DNA of 64,000 bases from an uncultured Sphingomonadaceae bacterium. Lineage in GTDB: Bacteria > Pseudomonadota > Alphaproteobacteria > Sphingomonadales > Sphingomonadaceae. The notes below the pieces were generated by a model. That model searched no databases and was not told the DNA's origin. It saw only the letters and a program-made list of their open reading frames with translations. The stretch spans positions 34,721 to 98,720 of the forward strand of contig CAIQHF010000043.1 of assembly GCA_903871605.1 (NCBI GenBank), written 5' to 3'. The translations under genes were made by a program, and so were the position numbers. This document shows positions 1 to 30,075 of this stretch, piece after piece. The first letter of the stretch is position 1. Each line of letters opens with the position of its first letter.

Positions 1-1218
1 CGACAGGATGCTGACGCAGGACATGCCGTCCTCGACCCCGTAGAAGCCACCCGAATTTTCCGCGATTGCGATCCGCGCGCCGGCCACCTGACGGCCCGCG
101 GCATCGCCGCGCAATTGGGCGACCAGCTCGTGGATCTGGGCGAGCCCGGTCGCCCCGAGCGGATGGCCCTTGGAAACGAGCCCGCCCGACGGATTGACCG
201 GAACGCGCCCGCCGATCGAGAAATCGCCACGCTCGGCGCCGGGGCCGCCACCCCCCGCCGCGCACAGCCCGAGCGCCTCGATCTGGACGATCTCGCCCGA
301 GGAACTCGCGTCGTGGACCTCGCCGAGATCGACGTCGGCCGGACCGATGCCGGCCATTTCATAGGCCGCGGCCGCGACCCCACGGGTGACGTGGCGGGCA
401 TAGTCGTCGGGCGCACGCGCGCGTCCGCTCTTCGAGCTGCAGGCGCGCACGCGGATCGGTCGATCGATCGCCAGCCGCCCGATCGCCTCCGCCGAACAGA
501 CGATGGCGGCAGCCGATCCGTCGCTGATCGGCGCGCACATCGGCACGGTCAGCGGCCAGGCGACCAGCCGCGCCGCGATCACCTCGTCGGTCGTCATCGC
601 CTTGCGATATTGCGACAGCGGGTTGTGCACCGAATGCGTGTGGTTCTTCGCCGCGACCGCCGCGATCTGGCGCGCCGTCGTGCCGTAGGTCGCCATGTGG
701 AGACGCGCCTGTGCCGCATAGGCGTCCATCAGCGCGTTGACGCTGGGCGCATCGGCGCCCGGCGGAGCCGGCGCCAGCTTGCCCGCGGTCGCGGCGAGAT
801 AGCGCTGCGCCTCCAGAATATCGAGCGGCTGCTGGAACACCGCGAACTTGCGCGCGGGATCGTCCGAATAGAGTTTCTCGGTGCCGACGACGAGCACCAC
901 GTCGGCGAGACCGGCGCGGACATAATCGAACGCGAGGTGGAAACCCATCGTGGCGCTCGCGCACGCCGCCTCGACGTGGATCGCGCGAACCCCCTCGATG
1001 CCCAGCGGACGCAGCGCGAATTCGCCGGGGATCGACATCTCGCCAGCGACGAAGCCCTGCGTGACATTGGCGTAGATCGCCATGTCAACCACACCCGCCA
1101 CCACCCCGGCATCGGCGAGCGCCTCGCGCACCGACGATTGGGTCAGCTGGCTGTGCGTCTTGTCGAGATGCCGGCCGAACGGCGTCATGCCGACACCGGC
1201 CACGAACACGTCGCGCAT
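1..1218 (-). CDS. Thiolase-family protein (SCP2-type/non-canonical thiolase), 3' end truncated by window edge
   Basis: Not in the ORF track (no stop in window). Manual translation from ATG 1218: MRDVFVAGVGMTPFGRHLDKT...HVEAACASATMGF...ENSGGFYGVEDGMSCVSILS. Start overlaps the upstream stop (TGATG). Confidence 0.85.
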   Translation of the reverse strand, partial: MRDVFVAGVGMTPFGRHLDKTHSQLTQSSVREALADAGVVAGVVDMAIYANVTQGFVAGEMSIPGEFALRPLGIEGVRAIHVEAACASATMGFHLAFDYVRAGLADVVLVVGTEKLYSDDPARKFAVFQQPLDILEAQRYLAATAGKLAPAPPGADAPSVNALMDAYAAQARLHMATYGTTARQIAAVAAKNHTHSVHNPLSQYRKAMTTDEVIAARLVAWPLTVPMCAPISDGSAAAIVCSAEAIGRLAIDRPIRVRACSSKSGRARAPDDYARHVTRGVAAAAYEMAGIGPADVDLGEVHDASSSGEIVQIEALGLCAAGGGGPGAERGDFSIGGRVPVNPSGGLVSKGHPLGATGLAQIHELVAQLRGDAAGRQVAGARIAIAENSGGFYGVEDGMSCVSILS

Positions 1219-2765
1219 CAGATCGTCCTTTCCCGGCCTTGCCAGAAGGGTCGCCGCAGCTCGGCGCGCAACACCTTGCCGGCGTTGCTGCGTGGCAGCG
1301 AATCGATGAAGCTCAGGCTCTTGGGTGTCTTCACCGGCCCCAGCCGCTCGCGCGCAAAGGCGAGTATGGCCGCCGTGTCGGCCGCGACACCGGCGCGCAA
1401 CTCGATCACCGCGGTGACGCTCTCGCCCCATTTGTCGTCGGGCACCCCGAACACCGCGCAATCCTGCACCGCCGGATGCGCCTGCAGCGCCTGCTCGACC
1501 TCTGCGGGATAGACGTTGAAGCCGCCGGTGATGATCATGTCCTTCTTGCGGTCGACGATGTAGAAAAAGCCGTCCTCATCGCGCATCCCGATGTCGCCGG
1601 TATGGTGCCAGCCGAAGCGCGAGACCTCCGCGGTCGCGCGCGGATCCTTGTAATAGCCCGCCATCACCAGCGGCCCGCGAACGACGATCTCGCCGCGCTC
1701 GCCGGGCGGCAGGATGGTGCCGTCGTCGTCCATAACCTCGACGATCGACAGAAGGTTGGCACGACCGCAGCTGCCCGGCCGCGCGAGATCGCCCCGGGCA
1801 TCGAGATGCTCGTGCGGCGGCAGCGCGGTGACGCACATCGGGCTCTCGGTCTGGCCGAAGCTGGCGTTCATCACCGGGCCGAACACCTCGATCGCCTCGC
1901 GCAGACGATCGAGCGACATCGGCGCGCCCGCATAGGAGATATATTCGAGGCTCGAGAGATCGCGGCGCCGCACGTCGGGCTCGCCGAGCAGCATGTAGAT
2001 CGCGGTCGGCGGCAGGAACATGTAGGTGACGCGGTGGCGCTCGATCGCGTCGAGCACCGCGGCAGGTTCGAATCTGGGAAGCACGACGACGGTACCCCCG
2101 AGCGCCATGCTAGCCAGCGCGAGCGGGCCCGCCGCGTGCGTCATCGGCGCCGCGACGCAGTTCACCGGCGCCACCTTCATCGGCATCGACGCGACCAGGC
2201 TCGACACCAGCGATTGCCAGACCAGATTCGTCAGCATCACCCCCTTGGAGCGGCCGGTGGTGCCGCCGGTCGCTCCGAGGAAGGCCAACTCCTCGGGGCG
2301 GCCCTCGCGTCGCTGCGCTACCTCGCCGTCGTCGCCCAGCCAGTCCTCGAGAAAGGCGTCGGCCTCCGGAAACGGCCGGTCGAGCGCGATGTAGCGGCGG
2401 ATCGTCGGGCAGTCGGCGCGGAAGCGCGCGATGCGATCGGCGACCTCGGAGTGGACGAACAGCGTGTCGACGTCGAGCAGGTCGAGCAGATAGGCGTTCT
2501 CGTCCTCGCTCGCGCGATGATTGGCCATCACCCACACGCCGTCGGCGCGCAGCAATCCCAATATGCACTCGAACGCGCGCGGATCGTTGCCGCTCAGCAC
2601 CGCGGCGTGCGCCCCGGACGCGAAACCGTCGCGGATCAGCCCGTTGCCGATGCGGTTGCTGCGCGCGCGCACCGCGTCATAGGTCCGCACGCGCTCGTCG
2701 GTGACGAGACAGGGCGACGCATGCGCGATGCGGGCGCCGCGATCGAAATAGTCGATCATCCGCAC
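1218..2765 (-). CDS. AMP-dependent acyl-CoA synthetase / CoA ligase
   Basis: TGGTTGRSKG P-loop, FGQTE, TGDIG, DRKKDMIITGGFNVYPAEVE, C-terminal GKVLR Lys; 515 aa. Confidence 0.93.
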   Translation of the reverse strand: MRMIDYFDRGARIAHASPCLVTDERVRTYDAVRARSNRIGNGLIRDGFASGAHAAVLSGNDPRAFECILGLLRADGVWVMANHRASEDENAYLLDLLDVDTLFVHSEVADRIARFRADCPTIRRYIALDRPFPEADAFLEDWLGDDGEVAQRREGRPEELAFLGATGGTTGRSKGVMLTNLVWQSLVSSLVASMPMKVAPVNCVAAPMTHAAGPLALASMALGGTVVVLPRFEPAAVLDAIERHRVTYMFLPPTAIYMLLGEPDVRRRDLSSLEYISYAGAPMSLDRLREAIEVFGPVMNASFGQTESPMCVTALPPHEHLDARGDLARPGSCGRANLLSIVEVMDDDGTILPPGERGEIVVRGPLVMAGYYKDPRATAEVSRFGWHHTGDIGMRDEDGFFYIVDRKKDMIITGGFNVYPAEVEQALQAHPAVQDCAVFGVPDDKWGESVTAVIELRAGVAADTAAILAFARERLGPVKTPKSLSFIDSLPRSNAGKVLRAELRRPFWQGRERTI

Positions 2766-2775
2766 CGGCGTGCGC

Positions 2776-4233
2776 TCAGCGTCGCAGCGTTAGGTCGAGC
2801 GCCTCGGAGCGAAGCCGCACATAGGGCGTCTTGGCGACCGCCATCAGCTTGCGCGCCTGCTCGAGCTCGGGCGACGACAATGTCGGATAGTCGCGGCGCG
2901 GCGGGCCGGCGCGGCGCATCTTCTCGATGTCCGACGCAGGCACCAGCGCGCGCAGGATCAGCTCGTCGTCGTCCTCGCCGGTGCCGTGCTGGCGGCGCAG
3001 ATCGTCGATGCTCGGCTGTTCGGGCGGATGCTCGACGATGTCCTTCGCACGCGGCGCCGCCATGATGCGGTCCATCACCTGCCCGTCGATCGGCGCGGGG
3101 GGCTCGCCATAATAGCCCGCGGCATATTGGATCACCTCGTCGGGCACGATGCCCCAGCGCTTGCCGGTGACGATGTTGAGCACCGCGACCGTGCCGACCA
3201 GCTGCGCGAACGGCGTCGCCATGCCGGGATAGCCGAGCTCGCGGCGGACCGCCGCGACCTCCTCCAGCACCTCGGGCAGTTTCTCGAGCATGTTCTGCTG
3301 GATCAGCTGGTTGCGGAGCGTACCCATCATCCCGCCGGGCACCTGCGAGGTCAGCGCCGCGACGTCATATTCATAATGCTGGTTGACCAGATAGCCTGCC
3401 GTCCGGCCGACGCGCTCGAAATGATCGGAGACGGGCTTGAGCAGCGCGGTGTCGATCCCGTGGCTGTGCCCCAGCGCCTCCATATTCTTGACCATGATGT
3501 CGATCGACGGGATCGAGGGGCCATTGGACATCGAGCGCGATGCGGTGTGCAGCACGGTCACGCCGAACTCGACCGCGTCGCAATAGGCCTTGGCGGACTG
3601 GCCGAGCATGTTGTTCGAATGCATCTCGATCGGCTTGCCGCGCGCCTTGGCGACGATCGCGGGCACCAGCGTCTTGATCCGGTCGCGATCGAGCACGCCG
3701 CCGGTGTCGTAGAGGAGAAGGCTGTCGACCTCGGGCAGCGCGGAGAGCTTGTCCGCCTTGTCCGCCCAAAAGGCGTCGTCATGGACCGGCGACAGCGTGA
3801 ACAGCATCGTGCCCGCGACCTTGCAGTCGTGCTTCTTCGCCAGGCTGGCGAGCCGCTGCATCTTGCCGATGTTGAACAGGACGTCGTAGATCCACCAGGA
3901 TCGCACGCCGTGCGCGCACAGCCGCTCCATCCACAGGTCCATCAGCGCGTCGGGCGTGAAGCCGAACGTCACCGAGCCGTTGGAGCGAATGCCACCGCGC
4001 ACCGGGGTCCGGCCGATCTGGCTCATCACCAGGTCGAGCCCCGCCCAGGGATCCTCCTGACAGTGGCGGATCAGCACCTCGAACAGCGAGGAGCCGGCGA
4101 AGCTGATCGTGTCGTAGCCCGTACGGTCGATCGTCGAGGCGACGGGATAGGCCATCCCGGCCTGCATCCGCATCCCCCACAGGCTCTGCTGGCCGTCGCG
4201 CATGGTCTCGTCGAGGAACTGGATATGCGCCAT
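2776..4233 (-). CDS. Biotin-dependent carboxyltransferase subunit (PycB/OadA TIM-barrel family), divergent active site
   Basis: DETMRDGQQSL, QVPGGMMGTL and ATPFAQLVG motifs; lies next to BC and BCCP genes. Confidence 0.85.
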   Translation of the reverse strand: MAHIQFLDETMRDGQQSLWGMRMQAGMAYPVASTIDRTGYDTISFAGSSLFEVLIRHCQEDPWAGLDLVMSQIGRTPVRGGIRSNGSVTFGFTPDALMDLWMERLCAHGVRSWWIYDVLFNIGKMQRLASLAKKHDCKVAGTMLFTLSPVHDDAFWADKADKLSALPEVDSLLLYDTGGVLDRDRIKTLVPAIVAKARGKPIEMHSNNMLGQSAKAYCDAVEFGVTVLHTASRSMSNGPSIPSIDIMVKNMEALGHSHGIDTALLKPVSDHFERVGRTAGYLVNQHYEYDVAALTSQVPGGMMGTLRNQLIQQNMLEKLPEVLEEVAAVRRELGYPGMATPFAQLVGTVAVLNIVTGKRWGIVPDEVIQYAAGYYGEPPAPIDGQVMDRIMAAPRAKDIVEHPPEQPSIDDLRRQHGTGEDDDELILRALVPASDIEKMRRAGPPRRDYPTLSSPELEQARKLMAVAKTPYVRLRSEALDLTLRR

Positions 4234-4240
4234 CAGCGCG

Positions 4241-5608
4241 TCACTCCGCAGCTATTGCGAGGCTCGGGAGCAGGGTCTGCTCGAGCCAGCGCGTGTGAAT
4301 GGTGTTGGCGACGAAATCGGGATGGGCGACGATCTCGCGGTGGAGCGGGATCGTCGTCGGCACGCCCTCGATGCGGAAATCGGCAAGCGCCTTTTGCAAG
4401 CGCTCGATCGCCTGGGCGCGGGTATCGCCGGTGACGATCAGCTTGCCGATCATGCTGTCGTAATATGGCGGGATCGTCGCCCCTTCGCCCATATGGCTGT
4501 CGAGGCGGATGCCGTCGCCTTCGGGCGGCTGCCAGCGCGTGATGCGGCCCGGCGACGGACGGAAATCGAGCGCCGGATCCTCGGCATTGATCCGGCATTC
4601 GATCGCATGACCCGCGATCGCGATATCCGACTGGTCGAGGCCGAGCGCCTCGCCGCCGGCGATGCGCAGCTGCCACTGGACCAGATCCTGCCCGGTGACC
4701 ATCTCGCTCACCGGATGCTCGACCTGGATGCGCGCATTGACCTCGATGAAGTAGATCTCCTGCCGCTCGACATCGTAGAGGAATTCGGCGGTGCCTGCGT
4801 TGCGATAGGCGACGCTCTTGGCCAGCCCGACCGCGGCGGCATGGAGCTGTGCGCGCAGCGCATCGGGCATCGCCGCGCAGGGCGCCTCCTCGATCAGCTT
4901 CTGGTAGCGGCGCTGAACCGAGCAGTCGCGCTCGCCGAAATGCAGCACCTTGCCGCGCCCGTCGCCCATCAGCTGGACCTCGACGTGGCGCGCCTTGCCG
5001 ACGAAGCGCTCCATGAACAGCGTGCCGTCGTTGAACGCGGCGAGCGCCTCGGCCGACGCCTTCTGGAACCCCGCCTCGACCTCGTCGCCGTCGTGCGCGA
5101 TCACCATGCCGCGTCCGCCCCCGCCCGCTGACGCCTTGAGCAGCACCGGATAACCGATCCGATCCGCCTCGCGGCGCGCATCGGAGGCGCTGGCGATCTC
5201 GTTGGTGCCTGGTACGAGCGGCACGCCCGCCGCCGCCGCCATCTCGCGCGCGCGCAGCTTGTCGCCGAGCGCCTCGATCATGTCGCCCTCGGGGCCGACG
5301 AAGACGATGCCATGCGCATCGCACAGCCGCGGCAGGACGGCGCGTTCCGAGAGGAAGCCATAGCCGGGGTGCAGCGCATCGCACCCCGTCTCGCGTGCGG
5401 CATGCACCACGAGCCGCGCGTCGAGATAGGATCTGGCGGCGGGCCCCGGCCCGAGGACGACGGCCCGATCGGCGAGCCGGGCGGCCGCGCTGTCGGTGTC
5501 CGCCGCCGAGACGCCGATCACCGTCTCGATACCGAGCGCCTGCGCGGCACGAACGACGCGAAGCGCGATCTCGCCCCGGTTGGCGACGAAGAGGCGGCGA
5601 ATGGCCAT
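4241..5608 (-). CDS. Biotin carboxylase subunit (AccC-like)
   Basis: ANRGEIALRV, HPGYGFLSE, KASAGGGGRGM, RDCSVQRRYQKLIEEAP, EVNARIQVEHPVSE, YYDSMIGKLI. Confidence 0.95.
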   Translation of the reverse strand: MAIRRLFVANRGEIALRVVRAAQALGIETVIGVSAADTDSAAARLADRAVVLGPGPAARSYLDARLVVHAARETGCDALHPGYGFLSERAVLPRLCDAHGIVFVGPEGDMIEALGDKLRAREMAAAAGVPLVPGTNEIASASDARREADRIGYPVLLKASAGGGGRGMVIAHDGDEVEAGFQKASAEALAAFNDGTLFMERFVGKARHVEVQLMGDGRGKVLHFGERDCSVQRRYQKLIEEAPCAAMPDALRAQLHAAAVGLAKSVAYRNAGTAEFLYDVERQEIYFIEVNARIQVEHPVSEMVTGQDLVQWQLRIAGGEALGLDQSDIAIAGHAIECRINAEDPALDFRPSPGRITRWQPPEGDGIRLDSHMGEGATIPPYYDSMIGKLIVTGDTRAQAIERLQKALADFRIEGVPTTIPLHREIVAHPDFVANTIHTRWLEQTLLPSLAIAAE

Positions 5609-5612: not shown

Positions 5613-6122
5613 TCAGCCCTTCGGATCGATCGCGAACAGCGGCTGGCCCGCCTCGACCATCGCGCCGTCGGTCGCCAGCACCTTCGCGACCCTGCCCGCC
5701 ACGCCGGCCCGGACCGCGGTAAACAGCTTCATCACCTCGACGAGGCAGAGGTCGCTGTCCGCCGTCACCTGCGCACCGATCTCGACATAGACGGGGTCGC
5801 CGGGCTTTGGTGCGCGGTAGAAGGTGCCGAGATAAGGGGCGCGGACGATCTCGAGACCGTCGAGGTCGTCCGCGCCAGGTGCCACCGGGGGCGGTGTTGT
5901 GGTCGTCCCGGCGACGGGGGGCAGAGCAGCGGCGGGGGGCGGAGAAGCGGCGGCGCCGGCTCGCGCGGGTGTCGCGCTGTGCTGGATCGTCGGCGATGCG
6001 GTGCCGTCGGTCGACAGATGCAGCTCGAACCCATCGAAGCGGATATGGAGTTCGGCGCAGTGCGACGCATCGAACCGCGCGACCAGCGCCTCGACATCCT
6101 CCGGGCGGATCGGATCAGCCAT
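5613..6122 (-). CDS. Biotin carboxyl carrier protein (AccB-like)
   Basis: Ala/Pro linker, APYLGTFYRAP, biotinylation motif EVMKL. Confidence 0.92.
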   Translation of the reverse strand: MADPIRPEDVEALVARFDASHCAELHIRFDGFELHLSTDGTASPTIQHSATPARAGAAASPPPAAALPPVAGTTTTPPPVAPGADDLDGLEIVRAPYLGTFYRAPKPGDPVYVEIGAQVTADSDLCLVEVMKLFTAVRAGVAGRVAKVLATDGAMVEAGQPLFAIDPKG

Positions 6123-7716
6123 GACGCAGCGCCTCGATCTCGTCGCGCGTCAGCCCGGCGCCGCGATCCTTCAGCCGGCGCGACTGACGCTGCTCGATCC
6201 GATACAGCGCGTCGACGCGCGGATCGTCGGGATGCCAGCGTATCCAGCTGTCGGAAAGCTTCCGGTAGTCGGGCGTCATCGCCGCGGGGGTGAAAGCCTG
6301 CGCGCGTTGGTTATACTCAGCAAGCGTCAGCCGGCCCTGCGTGGTCGTATAGACGTCGCGCTTGTCCGGATGGTGCGTCGATCCCGCGAGCGGCCGGTCA
6401 GGCGCAGCGGCGCCGGGTTCGTCGACGACGCTCAGCGGAACGTGCGACAGATAGCGCGCGGGGCGGTTGCTGTGCTGCATCATGCTGTAGGGGGACAGCT
6501 GCTGGCTCGGCAGGTCGACCAGCCCGACGAGCTCGCCGAGAAAATCGCGGCCGAACTCGTCGTTGAACAGATGGCGGAAACGATCGGCACGGTGGTCGAT
6601 CGTCATCCAGTCGTCGACGTCATAGACGCCCGCGACATGCGCCAGATCCTTGGGCATCGAGAAATAGATCAGCGCCCCCGCATCCATCATCTGGTCGCGC
6701 GACCATCCCGACATCTGCTTCCACAGCGCCACCGTCGCGTGCTTGAACGTCTCGGTCAGTCGCTCGAAGGTGTCGGCAAGCTCCTCGGCCGATCCCATGC
6801 CGACCGGCTGATAGCCCTCCGAGAGCACGTCCGACGTGTAGAGGCCGACACCGACCAGCTTGTCGCCGGTGAGTTCGGGGCGCGACTCGAAGCTGCCCCA
6901 ATCGTCCATCAGATAGAAATGGCAGTCCTTCACCGCCATCGTCACGGTCAGATGGTTGTAGGGAATGTCGTCGGCGACCCCATCGAGCCAGGGATAGTCG
7001 CCGACCGCGAGATCGGTGAAATCACGGACAATCATCTCGCGGTCGTCAGCGATACGATAGGGGCCGCTGTTGTTGAGCGTCACCCGGCTCTCGCAGCTGA
7101 CCAGGAACCCATATTGCGAGACGGCGGCGAGGAAGGTCTGCGCCGCCCTGTGGAGCCGGTCGCCCGCCACGCAGTCATGAAGATCGGCGTGGAAGACCTG
7201 GACGCGCCGCTCGGGCAGCGACTGGACACGCTGGCCGAATTCGCGTGCGTTGAGATGGCCGTCCTCGCGCTGGTAGGCGAGCTTGTAGCGCCGCCAGAAG
7301 TCCATGACGGTGATCACGTCCTCGGCATGATCCTCGGGCCGCAGCAGGCCGAAGTTGATCAGCATCTCGCGGCCAAGCAGGAAGAAGGTCGGCAGGCCCC
7401 AGCTCGGCAGGCTGCCGAACTTGCCGCCCATCGTCCGCGCGCGATCCCCGATCTCCTCGGCGCTCATCACCGCCTCGATCTTCCGCAGCAAGGCGGGATA
7501 GCGGTAGAAGCTCGTCAGATAGGAGAGCAGCATATAGGCCGGGACAGGGAATAGCTTGGATTCCTGGACCGTGCGCGTGACGCACAGCCAATAGGTGTCG
7601 TCGCCGATCGTCTGGATCGCATTATTGGCCTCGAGCACCGCGGCATAGCTCGGGCGGGCCACCGCCGGCGCCTCGACGATCCGCGCACCTTCCTGAATTT
7701 CGGACACTGACCGCAC
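6115..7716 (-). CDS. Hypothetical protein (~533 aa), first gene of the carboxylase operon
   Basis: Long ORF with typical codon usage. GTG 7716 is preceded by AAGGAG (alternative starts 7758/7785). Its end overlaps the BCCP start by 8 nt. No family motif recognised. Confidence 0.8.
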   Translation of the reverse strand: MRSVSEIQEGARIVEAPAVARPSYAAVLEANNAIQTIGDDTYWLCVTRTVQESKLFPVPAYMLLSYLTSFYRYPALLRKIEAVMSAEEIGDRARTMGGKFGSLPSWGLPTFFLLGREMLINFGLLRPEDHAEDVITVMDFWRRYKLAYQREDGHLNAREFGQRVQSLPERRVQVFHADLHDCVAGDRLHRAAQTFLAAVSQYGFLVSCESRVTLNNSGPYRIADDREMIVRDFTDLAVGDYPWLDGVADDIPYNHLTVTMAVKDCHFYLMDDWGSFESRPELTGDKLVGVGLYTSDVLSEGYQPVGMGSAEELADTFERLTETFKHATVALWKQMSGWSRDQMMDAGALIYFSMPKDLAHVAGVYDVDDWMTIDHRADRFRHLFNDEFGRDFLGELVGLVDLPSQQLSPYSMMQHSNRPARYLSHVPLSVVDEPGAAAPDRPLAGSTHHPDKRDVYTTTQGRLTLAEYNQRAQAFTPAAMTPDYRKLSDSWIRWHPDDPRVDALYRIEQRQSRRLKDRGAGLTRDEIEALRHG

Positions 7717-10509: not shown

Positions 10510-10521
10510 GCCGGCTTCGCC

Positions 10522-11868: not shown

Positions 11869-12102
11869 CAAATATCCTTCAGCTCGGCGGGGATCGCGCG
11901 CGGAGAGCGATCGGGAACGGGCCGGCCACGCCGCGGACGCGGCGTTGGTCATGCCGTCCATGACAGATCATGCTGCGATGCGGAACGCCCGTTCCAAAGC
12001 GATCGTCCCGCTTTTCTCCACCAGTTGGATAAGTGGGACATGTGGCGGGGCGGCGACCGCGCCGAACCCTAAGCTGCCCGCCGGCTGCTTAGGAGACGAT
12101 CG

Positions 12103-23789: not shown

Positions 23790-24650
23790 TCAGCCGACCT
23801 CGTTCCATTTGCGGTCGAATGCCCAGACATCCTCGAAGCCGATCAGCCCGCAGAAGGTCTTGAAGTCGAACATCGCCATGTCGGCGGGCTCGCCGTCGCC
23901 GTGATCGCGCAGCTTGATCAGCGCGGTCTCGATCGCCGAGGCGGCGATCAGCGAGGTGAGCGAGGGATAGATGGCGAAGGCGTAGCCGATGTCCGCCAGC
24001 ACGTCGCCCTTGAGCACCGGGGTCAGGCCACCATTGGCCATGTTCGCCATCACGGGCACATCGAAGGCGGCGCACGCCGTGCGCATCTCCGCCACGCTGG
24101 TGAGCGCCTCCGGGAAGAGCACGTCCGCGCCCGCCTTGGCATAGGCCTCCAGCCGCCGCATCGTGCCGTCGAGCCCCTCCGATTGGCGCGCATCGGTACG
24201 CGCGATCACCAGCATGTCCTCGCGCGCCTCGACCGCGACCTTGATCTTGGCGACCATCTGCTCGATCGGGACGACGCGCTTATACGGGGTGTGCCCGCAT
24301 TTCTTGGGGAATTCCTGATCCTCCAGCTGGATCGCGGAAACGCCGGCCGCCTCATAGCCCTTCACCGTATGGTGGACGTTGAGCAGACCGCCATAGCCGG
24401 TGTCCGCGTCGGCGATCAGCGCCGCCTTGCTGGTGCGCTTGATCGTCGCCATGCGATCGACCATCTCGCTATAGCCGACGATGCCGGCATCGGGCAGCCC
24501 ATAGGCGGAGGCGGTCAGCCAATAGCCGGTGCCATAGACGATCTCGAAGCCGACGCGATCCGCGATCACCGCCGCGATCATGTCGTGCACGCCGGGTACG
24601 ACGAAAAATTTTTGGGTGGCGAGTTTGTCGCGCAGGCGGGTGTCAGTCAT
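23790..24650 (-). CDS. Isocitrate lyase/PEP mutase family C-C lyase (2,3-dimethylmalate lyase/PrpB-like)
   Basis: DADTGYG, LEDQEFPKKCGH, IARTDA. Confidence 0.9.
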   Translation of the reverse strand: MTDTRLRDKLATQKFFVVPGVHDMIAAVIADRVGFEIVYGTGYWLTASAYGLPDAGIVGYSEMVDRMATIKRTSKAALIADADTGYGGLLNVHHTVKGYEAAGVSAIQLEDQEFPKKCGHTPYKRVVPIEQMVAKIKVAVEAREDMLVIARTDARQSEGLDGTMRRLEAYAKAGADVLFPEALTSVAEMRTACAAFDVPVMANMANGGLTPVLKGDVLADIGYAFAIYPSLTSLIAASAIETALIKLRDHGDGEPADMAMFDFKTFCGLIGFEDVWAFDRKWNEVG

Positions 24651-25248
24651 GATGTCCTTCTGTCGTCCAGAGCCATGGCGCAGCCTTTCGCTGCACGGTT
24701 TCGAATCGCGCTATGTCGTCCGCGTGGAGTGCGCGTATCCGCGCGATCTCGTCCCAGCCGTTGAGCAGCGACTGACGGCGATCCTCGCTGATCGCGAACC
24801 GGAACGGCCCGGTGTCGGGCAGCGCGAGCGTGCCGGCGGCGAGATCGAGATCGAAGATCGCGCCCGCGCGCGCTGCCTCGTGCAGCCGAGCGATGGTCGG
24901 AGCCGGCAGAATGATCGGCAACATGCCGTTCTTGAAGCAGTTGGAATGGAATATCTCGCCGAAGCTCGGTGCGACGATCACCCGGAAGCCGAGGTCCGCC
25001 AATGCCCAGGGCGCCTGTTCGCGGCTCGAGCCGCACCCGAAATTGGCGCCCGCGACGAGGAAGGGCGCAGCCGGCATGTCGTCGGTGATGGGGAAGCCGG
25101 GATCGCTGCGTCGATCGTGGAACGCGTAACGCCCTAGCCCCCGCTTCTCGGTGATCAGCAGATAGCGCGCCGGGTAGATGATGTCCGTGTCGACGTCCGC
25201 CTCGGGCATCGAGATAGCGCGACCGCGCAGCGTGTCGAGCGCGCGCAT
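24643..25248 (-). CDS. leuD: 3-isopropylmalate dehydratase small subunit-like protein
   Basis: DVDTDIIYPAR, GANFGCGSSREQAPWAL, SFGEIFHSNCFKNG; physiological substrate may differ. Confidence 0.9.
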   Translation of the reverse strand: MRALDTLRGRAISMPEADVDTDIIYPARYLLITEKRGLGRYAFHDRRSDPGFPITDDMPAAPFLVAGANFGCGSSREQAPWALADLGFRVIVAPSFGEIFHSNCFKNGMLPIILPAPTIARLHEAARAGAIFDLDLAAGTLALPDTGPFRFAISEDRRQSLLNGWDEIARIRALHADDIARFETVQRKAAPWLWTTEGHHD

Positions 25249-26660
25249 CAGTGCCACGCCCGGATATCGGTGATGCGGCCGGTCAGCGCCGCCGCCGCAG
25301 CCATGGCGGGGCTCATCAGATGCGTGCGCGCGCCCACGCCCTGACGCCCCTCGAAATTGCGGTTGGAGGTCGATGCGCACCGCGCGCCCGGCGGCAAGCG
25401 GTCGTCGTTCATCGCCACGCACAGCGAGCAGCCGGCGTCGCGCCAGAGAAAGCCCGCGCGCGTGAATAAGCGGTCGAGTCCCTCGGCCTCGGCCTGCCGG
25501 CGCACCGCATCGGATCCCGGGACGACGAGCGCGCGCACGCCATCCGCGACATGGCGATCGCCGACCATCGCGGCGGCCGCGCGCAGATCCTCGATCCGCC
25601 CGTTGGTGCAGCTGCCGATGAAGGCATGGTCGATCGCGAGCCCGGCGAGCGGGCGACCGGATGTGATGTCCATATAGTCCAGCGCATGCGCGAGTCGCTC
25701 ACGCGCCGCCGCCGGGCTCGCGGTGGCCGGATCGGGTATGGCCTCGTCGACGCCGAGCACCTGATCGGGACTGGTGCCAAAGGTAACCTGCGGCGCGAGC
25801 GATCCGAGGTCGATCTCGATCTCGCGATCGAATTGCGCCGCAGGGTCGCTCGCGAGCATCCGCCACGACGCCAGCGCCTGCTCCCACGCCCTGCCCGACG
25901 CCACGCGCGGCCGGCCGGCGAGATAGGCGAATGTCGTCTCGTCGGGCGCGATCAGCCCGGTTCGCGATCCCGCCTCGATCGCCATGTTGCAGAGCGTCAT
26001 GCGCGCCTCCATCGACAGCGCGCGGACCGCGGCGCCGGCATATTCGATCGCATAGCCGGACGCCCCGCCCGCGCCGATCTGCCCGATCATCGCGAGCACC
26101 ATATCCTTTGCGGTGATGTGGGGGCCCGGGGTGCCGGTGAAGCGGACGCGCATGCGCTTCGCCTTCTCCTGCCACAGCACCTGCGTCGCCATCACCGTGC
26201 CGCACTCGCTGGCACCGATCCCGAAGGCGAGCGCACCGAAGGCGCCGTGCGTCGCGGTGTGGCTGTCGCCGCAGACCAGCGTGATGCCCGGGATGGTGAA
26301 GCCCTGTTCGGGACCGATGACGTGGACGATACCCTGACCGGGGCCGTCGAGCGGCAGATATTCGATCCCGAAGGCGGCGCAGTTCGCCTCGAGCAGCGCC
26401 ACCTGCGCGCGCGCCTGCGGGTCGCCGATCGGGCTGCCGCGGTCGTGCGTCGGCACCGCATGATCGGCGACGGCCAATTGGGTCGCGGGGCGGTGCACGC
26501 CGATCCCCGCCTCGCGCAGCGCCTCGAACGATTGCGGCGTGCTCACCTCGTGGAGCAGGTGCCGGTCCACATACAGCAGCGCGCGCGCCTCGCCCTGCCC
26601 GGCCACGACGTGCGCGTCCCACAGCTTGTCGTACAATGTGCGTGCGATCTGCTCGGCCAT
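25248..26660 (-). CDS. leuC: 3-isopropylmalate dehydratase large subunit-like protein ([4Fe-4S])
   Basis: [45 protein letters not shown]; GGAGGA RBS; physiological substrate may differ. Confidence 0.92.
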
Positions 26661-26834
26661 CCGGTCCTCCGGCGATTCCATGGGTGCGATCGGTCGGCGG
26701 GTCGACTGGCGGGACGGGTTTCTCCGCCCAGCGATCAGACTGCGGGAGGCGCGTTACTTTTCGCGCCGCGCCTGTTCCGATGTCGCCCGTTCTGCTGCTT
26801 TGCGTGTCGACCAGCCTCGTGACCGGAGACGGCC

Positions 26835-27000: not shown

Positions 27001-27918
27001 TCATCCCGTCAGCTGGCCGGGAATGTGGCTCTCGTGGTTCTGGAGATACCAATCGGCGATCTCCTCGCGTGTCGCCCACCAGACCCCCGGCAGCGACTTG
27101 GCGTGCTCAATGAACTCCCTGAGCGCGCGGATCCGATGAGCGCGGCCCGAGACGTGCGGGTGCAGCCCGACGTTCATGATCCGGCCGGTGGTCGCGCCCT
27201 CCTCGTAGAGCACGTCGAGTTCCTCGATCAGCGCCTGGGCGAATTGGTCGGTGGTGAAGTTCTTGCGCGTGATGAAGGTGAAGTCGTTGATCTCGTTCGA
27301 ATAGGGCACGGAGACGATCGGCCCGTTGGGGGTGCGCAGCAGATAGGGCTGATCGTCGTTCATGATGTCGCAGTAGAAGGTGCACCCCTGTTCGGCGAGA
27401 ATGTCCGCCGTCTGCAACGTCCCGCGCAGCGAGGAGGAGAGCCAGCCCTTCGACTTGCGGCCGGTGAATTTCTCGAACTGATCGAGCGTGCGCAGCACGA
27501 TCTCGCGCTCCTTGGCCGGATCGCCCGCGAAGTTGGTGAGCAGCTCGCCCTGCTCCCAATTGTGCGTGAGCAGCTCCCAGCCGCGCTCGAGCACCGCGTC
27601 GGTCATCGCCTTGCGACGCTCGAAGGTGACCGCGTTGGTGGTGCAGCTCGCCTTGACGCCGAGCTTGTCGAACAGCTCGAACAGCCGCCAGATACCGACC
27701 CGCTGGCCATATTCGCGCCAGCTATAATTGGGGAAGTCGGGCGTGTTGCCGGGCAGTATGTCGGGCAGGATCGACGGGCCGCCGGCATAATAAGGCTTGT
27801 CGGTGTCCTTGGTGAGGTCCCACGTCTCGAGGTTGAAGGTCAGGATCAGAGCGACTCGCGCTCCGTTCGGCCATTTGAGCGGCTGGCGAGCGGGAAGCGG
27901 GACGTAATCATAATCCAT
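27001..27918 (-). CDS. Polysaccharide deacetylase-family (PuuE allantoinase-like) hydrolase
   Basis: KWPNGARVAL, REYGQRVGIWR, YSNEIND, LHPHVSGRAHR. Confidence 0.88.
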   Translation of the reverse strand: MDYDYVPLPARQPLKWPNGARVALILTFNLETWDLTKDTDKPYYAGGPSILPDILPGNTPDFPNYSWREYGQRVGIWRLFELFDKLGVKASCTTNAVTFERRKAMTDAVLERGWELLTHNWEQGELLTNFAGDPAKEREIVLRTLDQFEKFTGRKSKGWLSSSLRGTLQTADILAEQGCTFYCDIMNDDQPYLLRTPNGPIVSVPYSNEINDFTFITRKNFTTDQFAQALIEELDVLYEEGATTGRIMNVGLHPHVSGRAHRIRALREFIEHAKSLPGVWWATREEIADWYLQNHESHIPGQLTG

Positions 27919-27939
27919 CGCAGATTCTCCGTGAAAAGC

Positions 27940-28698
27940 TCAGAACTCGGCGAGAAGGCGACCGAAGCCGTCCATCTGGTCCGCAATGCCCATGGTGCGC
28001 AGCGCATGCCAGTAGGTGGCGGTATTGATCGCGATCACCGGCTTTTCCAACCAGAACTCCGCCATCGCCGCAACCTCTGCGAACGCCAGGTTGGTGCCGG
28101 CCTGGATGATCGCATCGACGCCTTCGGAGACCGCGATCGCGGTCCGCTTGAGCTTTTGCTTGTCCTCATGCGCGATCATCATCGGCGAAGGCGATTTGAG
28201 CCCGACGATGTGCACCACCTCATAGCCCTGATCCTCGAAGAACTTCTTCACATTGGCGTCGCCGACCGGCGCATAGGGGGTCAGGATGCCGATCTTCCGG
28301 ATCGGCGCGCGGCCCGTCTCATACGCCTTGATCGCCGCGTCGACCGCGGTCGACCCCATGATCACCGGCACGCCTCCAGTGCGCTCGAGCATTTTCTTGT
28401 GCAGCCGGTCGGCGCCCTCGGCACCGTCCCAGAACGTCTCTGCCGACATGCCCATGATCACGCAGCCCGGATCCATCGACATCGAGATGTCGACCGCGTC
28501 GAAGGTCGAATCGCGGATCGTCTGCAGCATCACCATGAAGCTGTCATCGTCGGTCACCCGTGTGTCGGGAATCGCGATGCGCGAGAAATGGTTGGTCACG
28601 CCGCGCGGCCGCATCGCCGCATATTCGGGCTCGACGCTGGTGTTCGTTGACGGGGCAACCACCGCAAACTTCATTCGATAGCCCAGGGAATCGGTCAC
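27940..28698 (-). CDS. Asp/Glu racemase-superfamily protein (maleate isomerase/arylmalonate decarboxylase-like)
   Basis: VVAPSTNTSVEPE, GILTPY, QAGTNL, PVIAIN; GTG start 28698. Confidence 0.82.
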   Translation of the reverse strand: MTDSLGYRMKFAVVAPSTNTSVEPEYAAMRPRGVTNHFSRIAIPDTRVTDDDSFMVMLQTIRDSTFDAVDISMSMDPGCVIMGMSAETFWDGAEGADRLHKKMLERTGGVPVIMGSTAVDAAIKAYETGRAPIRKIGILTPYAPVGDANVKKFFEDQGYEVVHIVGLKSPSPMMIAHEDKQKLKRTAIAVSEGVDAIIQAGTNLAFAEVAAMAEFWLEKPVIAINTATYWHALRTMGIADQMDGFGRLLAEF

Positions 28699-28885
28699 GG
28701 CGGCGGCCCTCTCATTGCTGCGGAACGCCTGTCTAGCCTCGCCGCCGGTCGCGGCGAACAACCGGCACCGCACCTCTCCGCGGTGCGGAGATATCATCGC
28801 GCGCCGCTGGCCACCTGACGGTCATTCTCGCGCGCCGGCCCTGCCTGCGCGACGCGCTCTGCTAACCGCGTCGCAGGGAGACGCT

Positions 28886-29563
28886 ATGAGACGACATGCC
28901 GGCACCATCGCCTATCGCGGCGAACAGGGGATTTGCGGCCGCGAGGTCTTCGCGATCGACGTCCGGGCCGACGGCCGCACGATCCGCTCCTATTGCGAGA
29001 TGGACGAGGGCGATCTGACCCGCGATGCGAGCTGGACGCTGGCCCCCGACGGATCGCCCGTCGAGGGCCATGTCCGCGTCACCAACGGCGGAGCGCTGGT
29101 CGGCAGCAGCTGGTTCCGCTGCACCGAGACCGAGACCGAATGCGAGAGCCTGATCGCGCACATGGGTCGGGTCTCGCAGCGCCTGCCGGGGCGCCGCAGC
29201 TATCTCGGCCTGCACCCCCTCGTCGGCGACGGCATGATCGCGCTGGCGCGTGGCCGCGAGGCGCCGGGCGAGCAGCGGGTGATCGACAGCGTCACCTGCT
29301 CCTACGACATCAAGGGCGAGACAAGCCTCGTCGCGCTGCCGATCGCGATCGGCGTCACCTATGTCGGCGAAACCGAGATCGAGGTGGCCGCAGGCCGCTT
29401 CGCCGCCGATCACTATCTTCTCCATTGGCAGCCCCATTGGCCTCCCGCCGAGCTCCATGTGCACGGCGAAGATGCCATCTTCCTACGGCTGCAATGGGAG
29501 ATATCGAGACGCACCTATGAACTGACGTCGCTGCACAGCGGCCCGACCAGCCTCACGGCCTGA
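28886..29563 (+). CDS. Hypothetical protein (225 aa), paralogue of 13925-14638
   Basis: GGGAG RBS; GETEIEVAAGRF..HY motif; C-terminal TYEL. Confidence 0.78.
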   Translation: MRRHAGTIAYRGEQGICGREVFAIDVRADGRTIRSYCEMDEGDLTRDASWTLAPDGSPVEGHVRVTNGGALVGSSWFRCTETETECESLIAHMGRVSQRLPGRRSYLGLHPLVGDGMIALARGREAPGEQRVIDSVTCSYDIKGETSLVALPIAIGVTYVGETEIEVAAGRFAADHYLLHWQPHWPPAELHVHGEDAIFLRLQWEISRRTYELTSLHSGPTSLTA

Positions 29564-29577
29564 CCCAAGGACGACGC

Positions 29578-30075
29578 ATGCCCCTGCCCCATGTCTCTTC
29601 GTTGATCCGCGCCTCGATCTTCGTCCGCGATATCGAGCGTGCCGCGGCCTTCTATGCGCTGCTCGGCTTCACCGACGTCTATTATGAGGGAAAGCTCGAC
29701 AACCCGTCGGCCTCCTCGGTGATCGGACTGACGCTCCACCGCCCCTATCGCGTCAAGATCGTCAAGCAGCCCGGACCCAATCACGGCATGATCGGGCTGT
29801 TCGAGCTCGATCCCGAGGCCGCGCCCGAGGCGCTGCCCGCGCCGGCCGGCCCTGCCCGTCGTGGCGAGGTCGCGCTGGTCTTCTACGTCCGCTCGATGAC
29901 CGACACGCTCGCTGCACTCCGCGCGGCCGGGGCGACCTGGTCGCCCGACCCCGAATTGTTCACCATGGCGCATCGTTCGCAATTCGAGGTCTGTCTGCGC
30001 GATTGCGACGGCGTGTTCATCAACCTCGTCGAGACCGATCCGGCCGAGCAGCACCGAACCGAACGCGAAGGCTGA
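29578..30075 (+). CDS. VOC/glyoxalase-family protein
   Basis: IFVRDIERAAAFY..LLG, LRDCDGVFINLVE. Confidence 0.8.
   Translation: MPLPHVSSLIRASIFVRDIERAAAFYALLGFTDVYYEGKLDNPSASSVIGLTLHRPYRVKIVKQPGPNHGMIGLFELDPEAAPEALPAPAGPARRGEVALVFYVRSMTDTLAALRAAGATWSPDPELFTMAHRSQFEVCLRDCDGVFINLVETDPAEQHRTEREG

Follow-up and report, generated by a model that had tools for sequence, protein, structure and literature searches.

Among described systems, those that one part of the locus analysed here resembles are the Hpe, Acv and Xcc pathways of ketone carboxylation. The Hpe pathway includes a kinase, a carboxylase, a phosphatase and a CoA synthetase (PMC9618137); in the Acv pathway, acvC, acvD and acvE follow the order BCCP, BC, CT, AcvE being PycB-like (bioRxiv 10.1101/2022.04.28.489975). 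For another part of the locus the relevant precedent is the PuuE family, whose enzymes hydrolyse cyclic imides (BpIH, PMC11424739).

The stretch of DNA analysed, hereafter the window, comprises 64,000 nucleotides, positions 34,721-98,720 of the forward strand of contig CAIQHF010000043.1 (GCA_903871605.1, a lake-water Sphingomonadaceae MAG); the region studied corresponds to its positions 1-30075. This region is very probably a juxtaposition of accessory catabolic modules that differ in their distribution among genomes, at least three of them separately inherited, rather than one pathway island, and the same high confidence applies to the module boundaries: Module A at 1-7716, plus a left flank on the same contig to about -7,900; module C at 13925-22622 (g11-g17); modules D/E at 22646-30075. 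The fuller reading, in which the mosaic combines a Module A of the Hpe/Acv kind with loosely linked modules C, D and E, is likely. The individual features are listed in Table 1.

Table 1. Genes and gene groups in positions 1-30075 of the window, in order of position.
Feature	Description	Position	Strand	Evidence or remark
g01	SCP-x-type thiolase	1..1221	-	Pfam Thiolase_N + Thiolase_C_1
g02	AMP-forming acyl-CoA ligase	1218..2765	-	Pfam AMP-binding E 7.7e-65; orthologues 72-77% identical
g03	PycB/OadA-type carboxyltransferase	2776..4233	-	Pfam, NCBIfam, PDB matches
g04	Biotin carboxylase	4241..5608	-	Pfam CPSase_L_D2, Biotin_carb_N/C; NCBIfam PRK08591 601.8, above cutoff 597
g05	Biotin carboxyl carrier protein	5613..6122	-	Pfam Biotin_lipoyl; TIGR00531 97.6 bits
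g06	533-aa orphan, heads carboxylase operon	6115..7716	-	No Pfam/PDB sequence match
g07	Alpha/beta hydrolase, stand-alone, start uncertain	7967..8881	+	Pfam Abhydrolase_6
g09>g08	MFS transporter, then GMC (choline-dehydrogenase-like) oxidoreductase	8890..11961	-	Pfam MFS_1, GMC_oxred_N/C
g10	Tandem double alpha/beta hydrolase	12103..13677	+	N-half elbow GSHSG
g11	LolA/VioE-like open beta-barrel, first module C gene	13925..14638	+	AF2 pLDDT 90.5; Foldseek
g12	Tandem CN-hydrolase	14638..16374	+	N-half E-K-C, predicted active; C-half dead (Q, G)
g13	Class I SAM methyltransferase, ~170-aa N-terminal extension	16371..17441	+	
g13b	Conserved 111-aa protein without family	17438..17773	+	52-68% identical elsewhere
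g14	Alpha/beta-fold protein, His at nucleophile position (GVHTG)	17770..18576	+	
g15	Aldehyde dehydrogenase	18587..20035	+	Pfam Aldedh E 4.3e-120
g16	GPH/MFS_2-type transporter	20047..21414	+	
g17	Alpha-only Rieske oxygenase	21411..22622	+	Homologues carry PF00355, PF00848
g18	Zn alcohol dehydrogenase, class III-like	22646..23773	+	Part of LeuCD-PrpB operon in relatives
g21>g20>g19	LeuC-like, LeuD-like, PrpB/ICL-family lyase; Module D	23790..26681	-	
g23>g22	One-Cys Amdase/maleate-isomerase-fold protein, then PuuE-like hydrolase; Module E	27001..28698	-	
g24>g25	LolA-like g11 paralogue, then VOC/glyoxalase-fold protein; Module E	28886..30075	+	

GC3-based gene calling, Pfam and NCBIfam give about 26 tightly packed genes, in line with the count in the earlier note, while the five transcription units proposed there become seven when strand and gap are considered (g06>g01; g07; g09>g08; g10>g18; g21>g19; g23>g22; g24>g25). 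The block had also been described as free of regulators. Indeed, no Pfam-recognisable regulator gene lies inside 1-30075, but the block begins to the left of base 1: its first operon extends about 8 kb leftward, and the conserved GntR gene of that operon sits there. The four proteins noted as unknown correspond to g06, g11, g24 and g13b, which belong to no family and are all conserved elsewhere.

In module C, the g11 model matches the DUF1849 structure 6ntr (E 5e-7, TM 0.54) and also VioE in Foldseek searches; the protein has only 25 homologue clusters and is a distant paralogue of g24 (23% identity, E 2e-7). The g13b protein has no Pfam match, and its counterparts at three other loci are called genes of 113-116 aa. 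The half-dead nitrilase, the His-elbow hydrolases and the CntA-type Rieske oxygenase reported previously are all recovered: the C-terminal half of g12 carries K->Q and C->G in all homologues, while the N-terminal half retains the triad; the GVHTG of g14 aligns with the HDWG Asp of haloalkane dehalogenases, its His being conserved in orthologues (82-86% identity at two loci), and g10 has a comparable elbow in its N-half; the closest PDB match of g17 is CntA (E 1.9e-22). Homologues of g10, 42-50% identical, adjoin module C at two loci, L003 and L040, and g10 probably belongs to this module.

In modules D/E, the PuuE-like hydrolase of the earlier note stands, g22 matching TIGR03212 at 148 bits, though the cutoff is 424.6, and being predicted as a metal-independent cyclic amide/imide hydrolase. 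Its neighbour g23, by contrast, is not the Cys-less racemase fold it had been taken for: when HMMER aligns it to maleate isomerase 4fq7, the Cys of PGCVIMG falls on the first catalytic Cys, and Gly takes the place of the second alone. The PrpB-like lyase scores 251.5 against TIGR02317, under the cutoff of 354.4. Among the enzymes of C, D and E, the equivalog cutoff is passed only by LeuC/LeuD, scored as ordinary isopropylmalate dehydratase; g21 shares 56% identity with the housekeeping LeuC of contig C51. In three other genomes the LeuC, LeuD, PrpB, in part a hydrolase, and ADH genes form, in this order, one co-directional operon.

Module C is rare, being found in 3 of 401 family genomes; its synteny is kept in Sphingobium boeckii, three Novosphingobium genomes, a Steroidobacteraceae MAG and JGI contigs. 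D/E are pieces of a gene set widespread in Sphingomonadaceae, present in about 10% of the family genomes: g22 orthologues (at least 65% identity) occur in 37 other genomes, 38 of 401 with the window's own, and in 24 of 112 genera. The PuuE-like, racemase-fold, LeuCD-like, PrpB-like and ADH genes recur as a group in different genera; the PuuE-like, Amdase-like, g24-like and VOC genes likewise recur jointly. Elsewhere the set takes in HyuAB, IclR and module C paralogues, with methyltransferase-like and ALDH-like genes among the members of mixed D/E clusters. Of 12 other genomes tested, seven have g21 orthologues (68-76% identical), and no module-A-only genome is among those seven; the four tested genomes that carry Module A only lack one. 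A LeuC-like orthologue is present in all five module C genomes checked, out of seven. All seven module C genomes carry a g22 orthologue (at least 73% identity), the base rate being about 9%; these are raw counts uncorrected for phylogeny. Since every module C genome also has D/E, g10-g25 may be functionally linked.

On these grounds, module C, occurring only in D/E-bearing genomes, can be read as a feeder into a D/E trunk. Our guess is that the substrate would be a cyclic amide or imide, and the HyuA/HyuB and amidohydrolase neighbours seen elsewhere are consistent with an N-heterocycle or cyclic amide. The peripheral operon would import the substrate via the MFS_2 transporter; the Rieske enzyme would cleave a C-N or C-O bond oxidatively, yielding an aldehyde to be oxidised by the ALDH, and the E-K-C half of the tandem nitrilase would hydrolyse an amide, carbamoyl or nitrile group. 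The methyltransferase, the His-elbow alpha/beta-fold protein, the 111-aa protein and the LolA-like protein have no step assigned in this scheme. In the trunk, the PuuE-like hydrolase might open the cyclic amide or imide to an alkyl-substituted unsaturated dicarboxylate, which the one-Cys racemase-fold enzyme would process, the LeuCD paralogue would hydrate and the PrpB-like lyase would finally split. That D/E form such a cyclic-amide trunk is put forward tentatively.

Possible, if rather unlikely, is the alternative that C, D and E are mutually unrelated, paralogue-rich catabolic cassettes that build up in shared flexible regions of sphingomonad genomes; their co-occurrence would then stem from shared ecology or genome size and not from one pathway. 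Order, orientation and neighbours do differ in every genome, module C being flanked by LacI, LysR or HyuAB according to the genome, a further paralogous cluster lies on contig C27 of the window's own genome, and the genomes of the carriers S. boeckii and Novosphingobium are both large and catabolically rich. The excess of g22 orthologues among module C genomes argues against it, as do the g24-like and g10-like genes attached to module C at L003 and L040, and the direct adjacency of Amdase-like, LeuCD-like and PrpB-like genes at three other loci.

Positions 1-7716 of the window are the right half of the conserved Module A system, which has about 13 genes, GntR-family regulator included; the g01 stop codon falls some 9 bases beyond the window's left edge. 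Homology assigns to the system an ATP-driven split PPDK-like dikinase (made up of a PPDK_N+swivel protein, another swivel-His protein and the unknown unk205, of 205 aa), an APH-type kinase, a SurE-type phosphatase, an acyl-CoA ligase, an SCP-x thiolase and a three-subunit biotin carboxylase; two metal ligands are missing from the PycB-like carboxyltransferase of the last. The genes for swivel, unk205 and PPDK_N map to C43:30966-33744 of the window's own genome, with SurE, APH, unk425 and GntR alongside. These left-flank genes are kept beside the operon at six orthologous loci and are interleaved with it at two more. The g06-g01 genes are syntenic at 65-80% identity at five of these six (the sixth, L022, is a variant), g01 keeping its operon position with orthologues 65-70% identical. 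The g06 protein has at least 941 homologues, and among the 120 matches listed all those named at source are 'hypothetical'; its AF2 model (pLDDT 78.5, pTM 0.82) matches no solved structure, the best Foldseek E value against PDB being 0.19. In paralogous operons a g06 homologue adjoins the swivel-His and PPDK_N proteins, and g06 may form the substrate-side part of this enzyme system.

By analogy with HpeHI/HpeCBA/HpeD/HpeE, AcvAB/AcvCDE/AcvF and XccABC/AcsA/TioL, a ketone-carboxylation system of this kind is the somewhat favoured interpretation of Module A. A ketone would be activated through phosphorylation and carboxylated next to the carbonyl, giving a beta-keto acid; this would be thioesterified and thiolytically cleaved to acetyl-CoA and an acyl- or aroyl-CoA. 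A non-aromatic compound could instead be the thiolase substrate. The dikinase trio is missing from the fetched flank at L023 and L047, and the edge of L021 shows SurE plus a fragmentary swivel match only; the kinase-dependent mechanism may thus be non-obligatory.

Module A might alternatively be an anaplerotic or 2-oxoacid carboxylase/decarboxylase (of pyruvate, oxaloacetate or 2-oxoglutarate type) with no role in ketone catabolism, since g03 matches pyruvate carboxylase subunit B and oxaloacetate decarboxylase alpha best in NCBIfam and PDB. This is improbable: every g03 score falls under the curated cutoff (296 vs 402), and alignment to OadA 2nx9 and PycB 5ks8 bears out the altered motif pointed out before, with Tyr for the carbamylated Lys of the metal site (LLYDTGG) and HSN for HxH, both substitutions holding throughout the g03 clade. 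In addition, linkage to CoA ligase, thiolase, dikinase and phosphatase is obligatory or frequent, and the system is patchy and accessory (15 of 401 family genomes).

Ketone carboxylation also bears on the idea, advanced in the earlier note, that all of the roughly 26 genes make up one undescribed route for uptake and catabolism of a single N-heterocyclic or N-methylated substrate. The genes do adjoin one another here, and modules A, C, D and E all occur somewhere in S. boeckii, but there they are spread over four contigs (C3, C2, C7, C8). At least 12 genomes have Module A without C, D or E, at least 35 have D/E without A, and three Novosphingobium genomes have C/D/E without A. In at least eight other genomes the carboxylase operon has been inherited independently, as a unit, and no g07-g25 gene lies within 10 kb of it there; in Sphingopyxis sp. 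J-6 it lies between housekeeping genes, and in same-genus genomes it was not found (4 searched for g06, 6 for CT). The operon is distributed independently of the PuuE-like marker, only one of 14 carriers having both when the window's own genome is excluded. Module A is also present in two of the three module C genomes of the family, the window's own and S. boeckii, and A and C may therefore be loosely associated. The g07, g08 and g09 genes are unlinked accessory genes: g07 orthologues (68-73%) in same-genus genomes lie in unrelated contexts, and g09-g08 were not found beside any other module in other genomes. The single-route idea thus fails for g01-g09, which do not co-occur with the remaining genes elsewhere, and survives in a weaker form for g10-g25, which form no fixed island, being scattered, shuffled and often on different contigs in other genomes. 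Moreover, Module A comes with a regulator of its own and is complete in its internal logic, and it maps onto a known kind of pathway. A single route for the whole block is accordingly very improbable.

The DNA of 1-30075 is genuine and contiguous, its layout being backed by the assemblies of two samples, and a metagenome-assembly chimera, for which the origin in a 54-contig MAG from lake-water metagenomes and a Logan contig break at 29105-29128 might speak, is barely credible, given an independent Logan contig from sample X1 that covers 1530-29128 with zero differences and an even depth of about 14-16, contigs of sample X2 that bridge three module junctions (7489-10043, 11413-13488 and 23014-25140), and a uniform GC content of 0.65-0.70.

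The logic of Module A, then, resembles that of the Hpe, Acv and Xcc aryl-methyl-ketone pathways, with differences in its parts. At L039, verified as a locus of acv layout, the BC is 56% identical to g04, whereas the CT shares only 36% identity with g03; Acv-type CTs keep the K and HxH, and g03 has a different active site. Likewise, the Module A phosphatase is of the SurE type, as opposed to HAD.

Gene calling by third-position GC, combined with Pfam and NCBIfam searches, yielded 26 genes in positions 1-30075 of the window, in agreement with the count of about 26 in the earlier note; gene starts are heuristic calls. The genes, numbered g01 to g25 (plus g13b) from left to right, are collected in the table with flanking and related loci. 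The genome, G000, measures 4.28 Mb in 54 contigs, and the window, C43:34721-98720, has a GC content of 0.63-0.72. One Logan contig from sample X1 spans 1530-29128 with zero mismatches, and three inter-module junctions are bridged by Logan contigs of sample X2: these independent contigs indicate that the gene arrangement is real. The X1 contigs break inside g24, at 29105-29128, where two of them overlap by 24 bases, the rest of the stretch being uninterrupted. Within g22, an X2 contig departs from the window at five closely grouped bases (C>G, G>C, C>T, G>A, G>C) at 27565-27589, a pattern suggestive of variation between strains or of a recombination tract, in a gene that is highly conserved. 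The organism was seen in lake-water metagenomes only; no RNA runs were found, and the sole matching runs are lake-water and oil-field metagenome DNA.

Genes of the studied stretch and related loci, with strand as read in the window
Feature	Position	Strand	Content
Module A (g01-g06)	1-7716, continuing left of the window	minus	
g06 (first of six in transcription order)		minus	533-aa protein, no family
g05		minus	BCCP
g04		minus	biotin carboxylase (BC)
g03		minus	PycB/OadA-type carboxyltransferase (CT)
g02		minus	acyl-CoA ligase
g01		minus	SCP-x thiolase
g07		plus	alpha/beta hydrolase
g09>g08		minus	MFS transporter, then GMC oxidoreductase
g10		plus	double alpha/beta hydrolase
g11		plus	no assigned family
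g12		plus	tandem CN-hydrolase
g13		plus	SAM methyltransferase
g13b		plus	111 aa
g14		plus	alpha/beta-fold protein
g15		plus	ALDH
g16		plus	MFS_2 transporter
g17		plus	Rieske oxygenase
g18		plus	Zn-ADH
g21>g20>g19		minus	LeuC-like, LeuD-like, PrpB-like
g23>g22		minus	Amdase-fold protein, then PuuE-like hydrolase
g24>g25		plus	no-family protein, then VOC-fold protein
Gallate/tannin locus	30267-43492		aromatic-acid MFS transporter, gallate dioxygenase, TonB receptor, AraC, 754-aa tannase
Module A left flank	G000 C43:26804-34708 (window about -7,900 to -13)		GntR/FCD regulator, 425-aa protein, APH-family kinase, PPDK_N+swivel protein, 205-aa protein, swivel-His protein, SurE-family phosphatase
Dikinase trio	C43:30966-33744, just left of the window		PPDK_N+PEP-utilizers, 205-aa and swivel proteins
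G000 paralogous cluster (L056, L057)	C27:14-42 kb		TonB receptor, two N-extended methyltransferase paralogues, two g24/g11-family genes, hydrolase, PrpB-like (43%), HyuA/HyuB (77-83%), IclR, ALDH
L022	G082:C1:586901-606900		carboxylase-operon variant
L035	G089:C1:2031001-2051000		carboxylase-operon variant
L052	G080:C2:1428501-1448500, 13067-14584		g08-like gene and its neighbours

The studied stretch, which had been read as a single co-inherited island of about 30 kb serving one undescribed route for an N-heterocyclic or N-methylated substrate, is a mosaic. Genes g01-g06 (module A) travel without g07-g25, and the members of the stretch are not kept together in other genomes. Among 401 Sphingomonadaceae genomes of 112 genera, an evenly drawn, non-exhaustive sample, carriers number 15 for the CT clade of module A, 38 for g22, the marker of module E (g22-g25), and 3 for module C (g11-g17, probably with g10). 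Module A and the g22 marker were found together only in Sphingobium boeckii besides the window's own genome, about 1.4 overlaps being expected by chance in the 401 genomes. None of g07-g25 was found within 10 kb of the carboxylase operon in other genomes, and g06 is absent from three Novosphingobium genomes carrying modules C, D and E. This corrects a tempting over-reading, adjacency in a single MAG not being equivalent to a pathway.

Genes g07-g09 are unlinked genes, and orthologues of g07 in relatives occupy unrelated contexts. At locus L052, in a distant member of the Sphingomonadaceae, a g08-like GMC oxidoreductase (39%) adjoins a PuuE-like/Amdase-like pair, the sole hint that g08 might belong with module E. 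An HpvZ-like role of g08 in beta-hydroxypropiovanillone catabolism was considered and is not claimed.

A g22 orthologue with at least 73% identity is present in all 7 genomes featuring module C or a partial copy, against a base rate of about 9%; inside the 401-genome sample this holds for 3 out of 3 (hypergeometric p ~8e-4, phylogeny ignored). An orthologue of the LeuC-like gene of module D (g18-g21) was found in all 5 module C genomes checked, out of seven, and is absent from the 4 module-A-only genomes tested. Despite their co-occurrence in 7 out of 7 genomes, C and D/E are mostly unlinked physically; in Novosphingobium resinovorum and in genome G222, modules C, D and E share one contig, 20-80 kb apart, while in S. 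boeckii modules A, C, D and E sit on separate contigs. Genes g10-g25 may well be linked in function, module C feeding a D/E trunk from the periphery. The idea of one pathway is thus abandoned for g01-g09 and retained in part for g10-g25, including, as an interpretation, the terminal hydration and cleavage of a branched dicarboxylate.

The order of module C (g11, tandem nitrilase, methyltransferase, a protein of about 113 aa, His-elbow hydrolase, (ALDH), MFS_2 transporter, Rieske oxygenase) is kept in S. boeckii, N. resinovorum, N. guangzhouense, a Novosphingobium MAG, a Steroidobacteraceae MAG and JGI metagenome contigs, with identities of 46-86%, lowest for the transporter. At the DNA level, the module was found in none of 30 close relatives. 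Its flanks vary: S. boeckii has LacI and an MFS transporter for sugars there, the Steroidobacteraceae MAG has LysR, and Novosphingobium has a divergent hydantoinase A/B accompanied by amidohydrolase, CobW and PEP-mutase-like genes.

Two altered catalytic motifs, already noticed in this module, were borne out by alignment. In alignment, the His of the g14 elbow takes the position that the nucleophilic Asp has in haloalkane dehalogenases, GVHTG being invariant in the orthologues, and the N-terminal half of g10 carries GSHSG. The N-terminal half of the "half-dead" nitrilase g12 retains E56, K128 and C161, as do 6 homologues; its C-terminal half, predicted to be inactive, carries Q and G throughout the homologues. 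The g11 protein is predicted to fold as a LolA/DUF1849/VioE-like open barrel (pLDDT 90.5; TM 0.54), has homologues in only 25 clusters among 5.8 billion sequences, and is a true distant paralogue of g24 (23% identity, E 2e-7). PDB matches of the g13 methyltransferase extend over the common SAM-binding core only and offer no hint of its function. At 16041-16374, tblastn aligned, across homologues and with similar overall identity, a frame overlapping the nitrilase 3' end, upstream of the methyltransferase ATG at 16371: as the methyltransferase calls of other assemblies begin at the nitrilase stop, we take this alignment to be an alternate-frame artefact of high-GC DNA.

As to module D, three genomes of the same genus (G305, G308 and G301) feature the order LeuC-LeuD-PrpB-(hydrolase)-ADH on one strand, indicating that the g18 ADH ancestrally belongs with g19-g21; in the window, the two blocks are mutually inverted. 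Both g21 and g20 pass the LeuC and LeuD cutoffs (711 vs 531 and 181 vs 167, respectively); a separate housekeeping LeuC, 56% identical, lies on contig C51, and g21 orthologues (68-76%), found in 7 of 12 other genomes tested, always lie in catabolic contexts. The PrpB-like g19 scores 251.5 bits with TIGR02317, for a cutoff of 354.4.

Orthologues of g22 (65-95%) were detected in 37 other genomes of the 401, in 24 of the 112 genera. Near them, in varying order, lie Amdase-fold, g24-like and VOC genes, as well as LeuCD-like, PrpB-like and ADH genes; also recurrent are paralogues of the module C methyltransferase (32-38%), ALDH and hydrolase, and, besides these, HyuA/HyuB, IclR, FAD monooxygenase and DUF1838 genes. 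The content of the paralogous cluster on C27 shows that the combination of LolA-like protein, methyltransferase, hydrolase and ALDH occurs at least three times in G000. The g23 protein, earlier described as Cys-less, proved to have one Cys: HMMER aligns the Cys of PGCVIMG with the first catalytic Cys (Cys82) of maleate isomerase 4fq7, the second being replaced by Gly (QAGTNL). It therefore lacks the two-Cys set of maleate cis-trans isomerase and of Asp/Glu/hydantoin racemases; arylmalonate decarboxylase shows the opposite arrangement, its single Cys being at the second (C-terminal) site, and g23 scores 46 bits with NF052327 (cutoff 225). To the right, g22-g25 adjoin the gallate/tannin locus, whose gallate dioxygenase is a fused LigB-LigA protein (NF009904, 629 bits vs a cutoff of 412). 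For this reason DesC/DesD, the CHMOD methylesterase and isomerase of syringate catabolism, were considered as counterparts of g22-g25, and discarded because DesD is a glutathione S-transferase and does not have the racemase fold; MgaC/MgaD of NGC7 belong to other families as well.

The families found in C, D and E (PuuE-like hydrolase, HyuAB and amidohydrolase in related clusters, nitrilase-fold amidase, racemase fold) suggest chemistry at C-N bonds, with cyclic amides, imides or ureides as the compounds attacked. One specific proposal, which we regard as improbable, is that g10-g25, together with the HyuAB/IclR cluster of C27, form an aerobic pathway, so far undescribed, acting on substituted cyclic imides or lactams, alkyl-maleimides from tetrapyrrole breakdown in lake water being candidate substrates. 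Ring opening would fall to the PuuE-like hydrolase or HyuAB, and the half-amide would then be hydrolysed by the tandem nitrilase; the resulting dialkylmaleate might be isomerised or processed by the one-Cys racemase-fold enzyme, hydrated by the recruited LeuCD paralogue and split by the PrpB-like lyase. The LolA-like and 111-aa proteins, the N-extended methyltransferase and the alpha/beta-fold protein with the His elbow, a recurring set, could provide a new transient methyl-ester (BioC/BioH-like) or cofactor-free step. In the literature searched, no relevant described pathway joins an imidase to a maleate hydratase, and no paper was found describing the gene set of either module A or C/D/E. 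The C/D/E set, found in about 10% of Sphingomonadaceae genomes with no published function found, repeatedly unites unusual variants, namely a hydrolase fold with a His elbow, a racemase fold with one Cys, a half-dead nitrilase and a LolA-like protein, and genetics is feasible in the cultured carriers S. boeckii DSM 25079 (G029), N. resinovorum and N. guangzhouense.

Three known systems resemble parts of this set. Eubacterium barkeri has the dimethylmaleate hydratase DmdAB and the 2,3-dimethylmalate lyase Dml, and HbzIJ is a maleate hydratase. With these, g19-g21 share an aconitase-family two-subunit hydratase and an ICL/PEP-mutase-family lyase, with no leuA/leuB nearby; in contrast to DmdAB, however, g20/g21 are bacterial LeuCD-type paralogues and not of the DmdAB/archaeal type (TIGR02087, only 81.8 bits), and the organism is aerobic. 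The Rieske and ALDH pair may, by analogy, recall the chemistry of the carnitine monooxygenase CntA/CntB: an alpha-only Rieske oxygenase linked to an ALDH is common to both, and CntA is the closest solved relative of g17. The similarity is nevertheless weak (83 bits; with NF058607, 73 bits vs a cutoff of 670), no reductase gene is present in the module C operon, and the other module C genes have no counterpart. The allantoinase PuuE and its relatives, which are imidases and include BpIH, are metal-independent cyclic amide hydrolases with the CE4 fold (PMC11424739); their pairing partners are hydantoin or allantoin racemases. They share with g22 the fold, the aligned Glu and two His residues, and the pairing with a protein of the Asp/Glu-racemase superfamily; in g22, however, the score is below the cutoff (TIGR03212, 148.3 vs 424.6 bits), the Trp of the E-H-W triad is out of register by two positions, the partner g23 keeps only the first catalytic Cys, and no purine-catabolic genes lie nearby.

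Judged by analogy, g01-g06 can be regarded as one end of a ketone-carboxylation-type system that includes a regulator and forms a logically complete whole. Homologues of g06 are found in 10 of 300 other Sphingomonadaceae genomes, and the order g06-BCCP-BC-CT-ligase-thiolase is kept, at 65-80% identity, in the carriers; in Sphingopyxis sp. J-6, which has module A only, the operon lies between phoH and ybeY, and it was not found in the same-genus genomes searched. The left-flank genes are also kept beside the operon in several genera, the dikinase proteins in six loci (L017-L019, L022, L025, L036) and the SurE phosphatase, at 62-69%, in four (L017-L019 and L021). In the paralogous operon of genome G215 (L025), genes for a swivel PEP-utilizers protein, a CoA ligase, a 210-aa protein and a PPDK_N+swivel protein surround the g06-like gene. 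The g06 family might handle the substrate within a split dikinase, which in turn would feed the biotin carboxylase. At least 941 homologues of g06 exist, and among the 120 listed every one named by its source is "hypothetical" and none carries a Pfam domain. Its AF2 model is confident (pLDDT 78.5, pTM 0.82), and no relative was found in the PDB by sequence or fold, the best Foldseek E value being 0.19. Matches resembling START domains were set aside as weak (probability <=0.11).

In the 401 genomes, CT homologues fall into three tiers, orthologues at 75-80%, paralogous operons at 59-63% and a third tier at 31-37%. Alignment to OadA and PycB upheld the altered CT motif, with Tyr at the position of the carbamylated Lys and HSN in place of HxH, and showed it to be fixed clade-wide. 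In G175, G245 and G082 the CT clade is represented by two or three paralogues, and operon variants L022 and L035 have no biotin carboxylase gene, L022 also being devoid of the CoA ligase. Module A would represent a widespread second lineage of kinase and biotin-carboxylase ketone activation, itself found recently for lignin-derived acetovanillone, featuring a CT devoid of the usual metal site and a large orphan family unmatched by solved folds. These two features lend themselves to direct testing and bear on the valorisation of lignin and ketones. The literature search returned no relevant described pathway joining biotin carboxylase, kinase and thiolase on methyl ketones.

A comparable order of steps is found in the anaerobe Aromatoleum aromaticum EbN1, where the route through XccABC, AcsA and TioL leads from 4-hydroxyacetophenone to 4-hydroxybenzoyl-CoA and acetyl-CoA; to our knowledge, no g06-family protein has been reported for EbN1. 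Module A shares with XccABC, AcsA and TioL the succession of carboxylase, CoA ligase and thiolase. The role of XccABC is cited in the reports on the two systems closest in layout (PMC9618137; bioRxiv 10.1101/2022.04.28.489975). These are the Hpe pathway of Rhodococcus rhodochrous GD02, consisting of the HpeHI kinase, HpeCBA biotin carboxylase, HpeD phosphatase, HpeE CoA synthetase and HpeF hydrolase (PMC9618137), and AcvABCDEF of Sphingobium sp. SYK-6, with its PycB-like AcvE and an AcvAB pair similar to phenylphosphate synthase (bioRxiv 10.1101/2022.04.28.489975). The sequence comparison was made with L039, the one third-tier locus inspected, whose genes (AraC, PEP-utilizers, PPDK_N, BCCP, BC, CT, HAD) have the acvR-ABCDEF layout; XccABC, HpeCBA and AcvCDE were likened by description.

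Module A and the Hpe/Acv systems have in common an ATP-dependent kinase of the PPDK/PEP-synthase type, a three-subunit biotin carboxylase with a PycB-like CT, a phosphatase, an enzyme for CoA activation of the beta-keto acid product and a dedicated regulator; the gene order g05-g04-g03 matches acvC-acvD-acvE. The kinase of module A is split differently from AcvAB, into a PPDK_N+swivel protein, a separate swivel protein, the 205-aa protein and the orphan g06; no HAD protein is present at the locus, where a SurE-family phosphatase appears to replace the HAD phosphatase (AcvF/HpeD); a thiolase stands where Hpe/Acv have a hydrolase or VceAB, the regulator is GntR instead of AraC, and the APH kinase and the 425-aa protein are additional. 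The CT of module A is 36% identical to that of L039 and lacks, clade-wide, the carbamylated Lys (K->Y) and the second His (H->N) of HxH, whereas the third-tier Acv-like CTs retain both, which argues that module A is a separate lineage of the Hpe/Acv kind of system, and not an orthologue.
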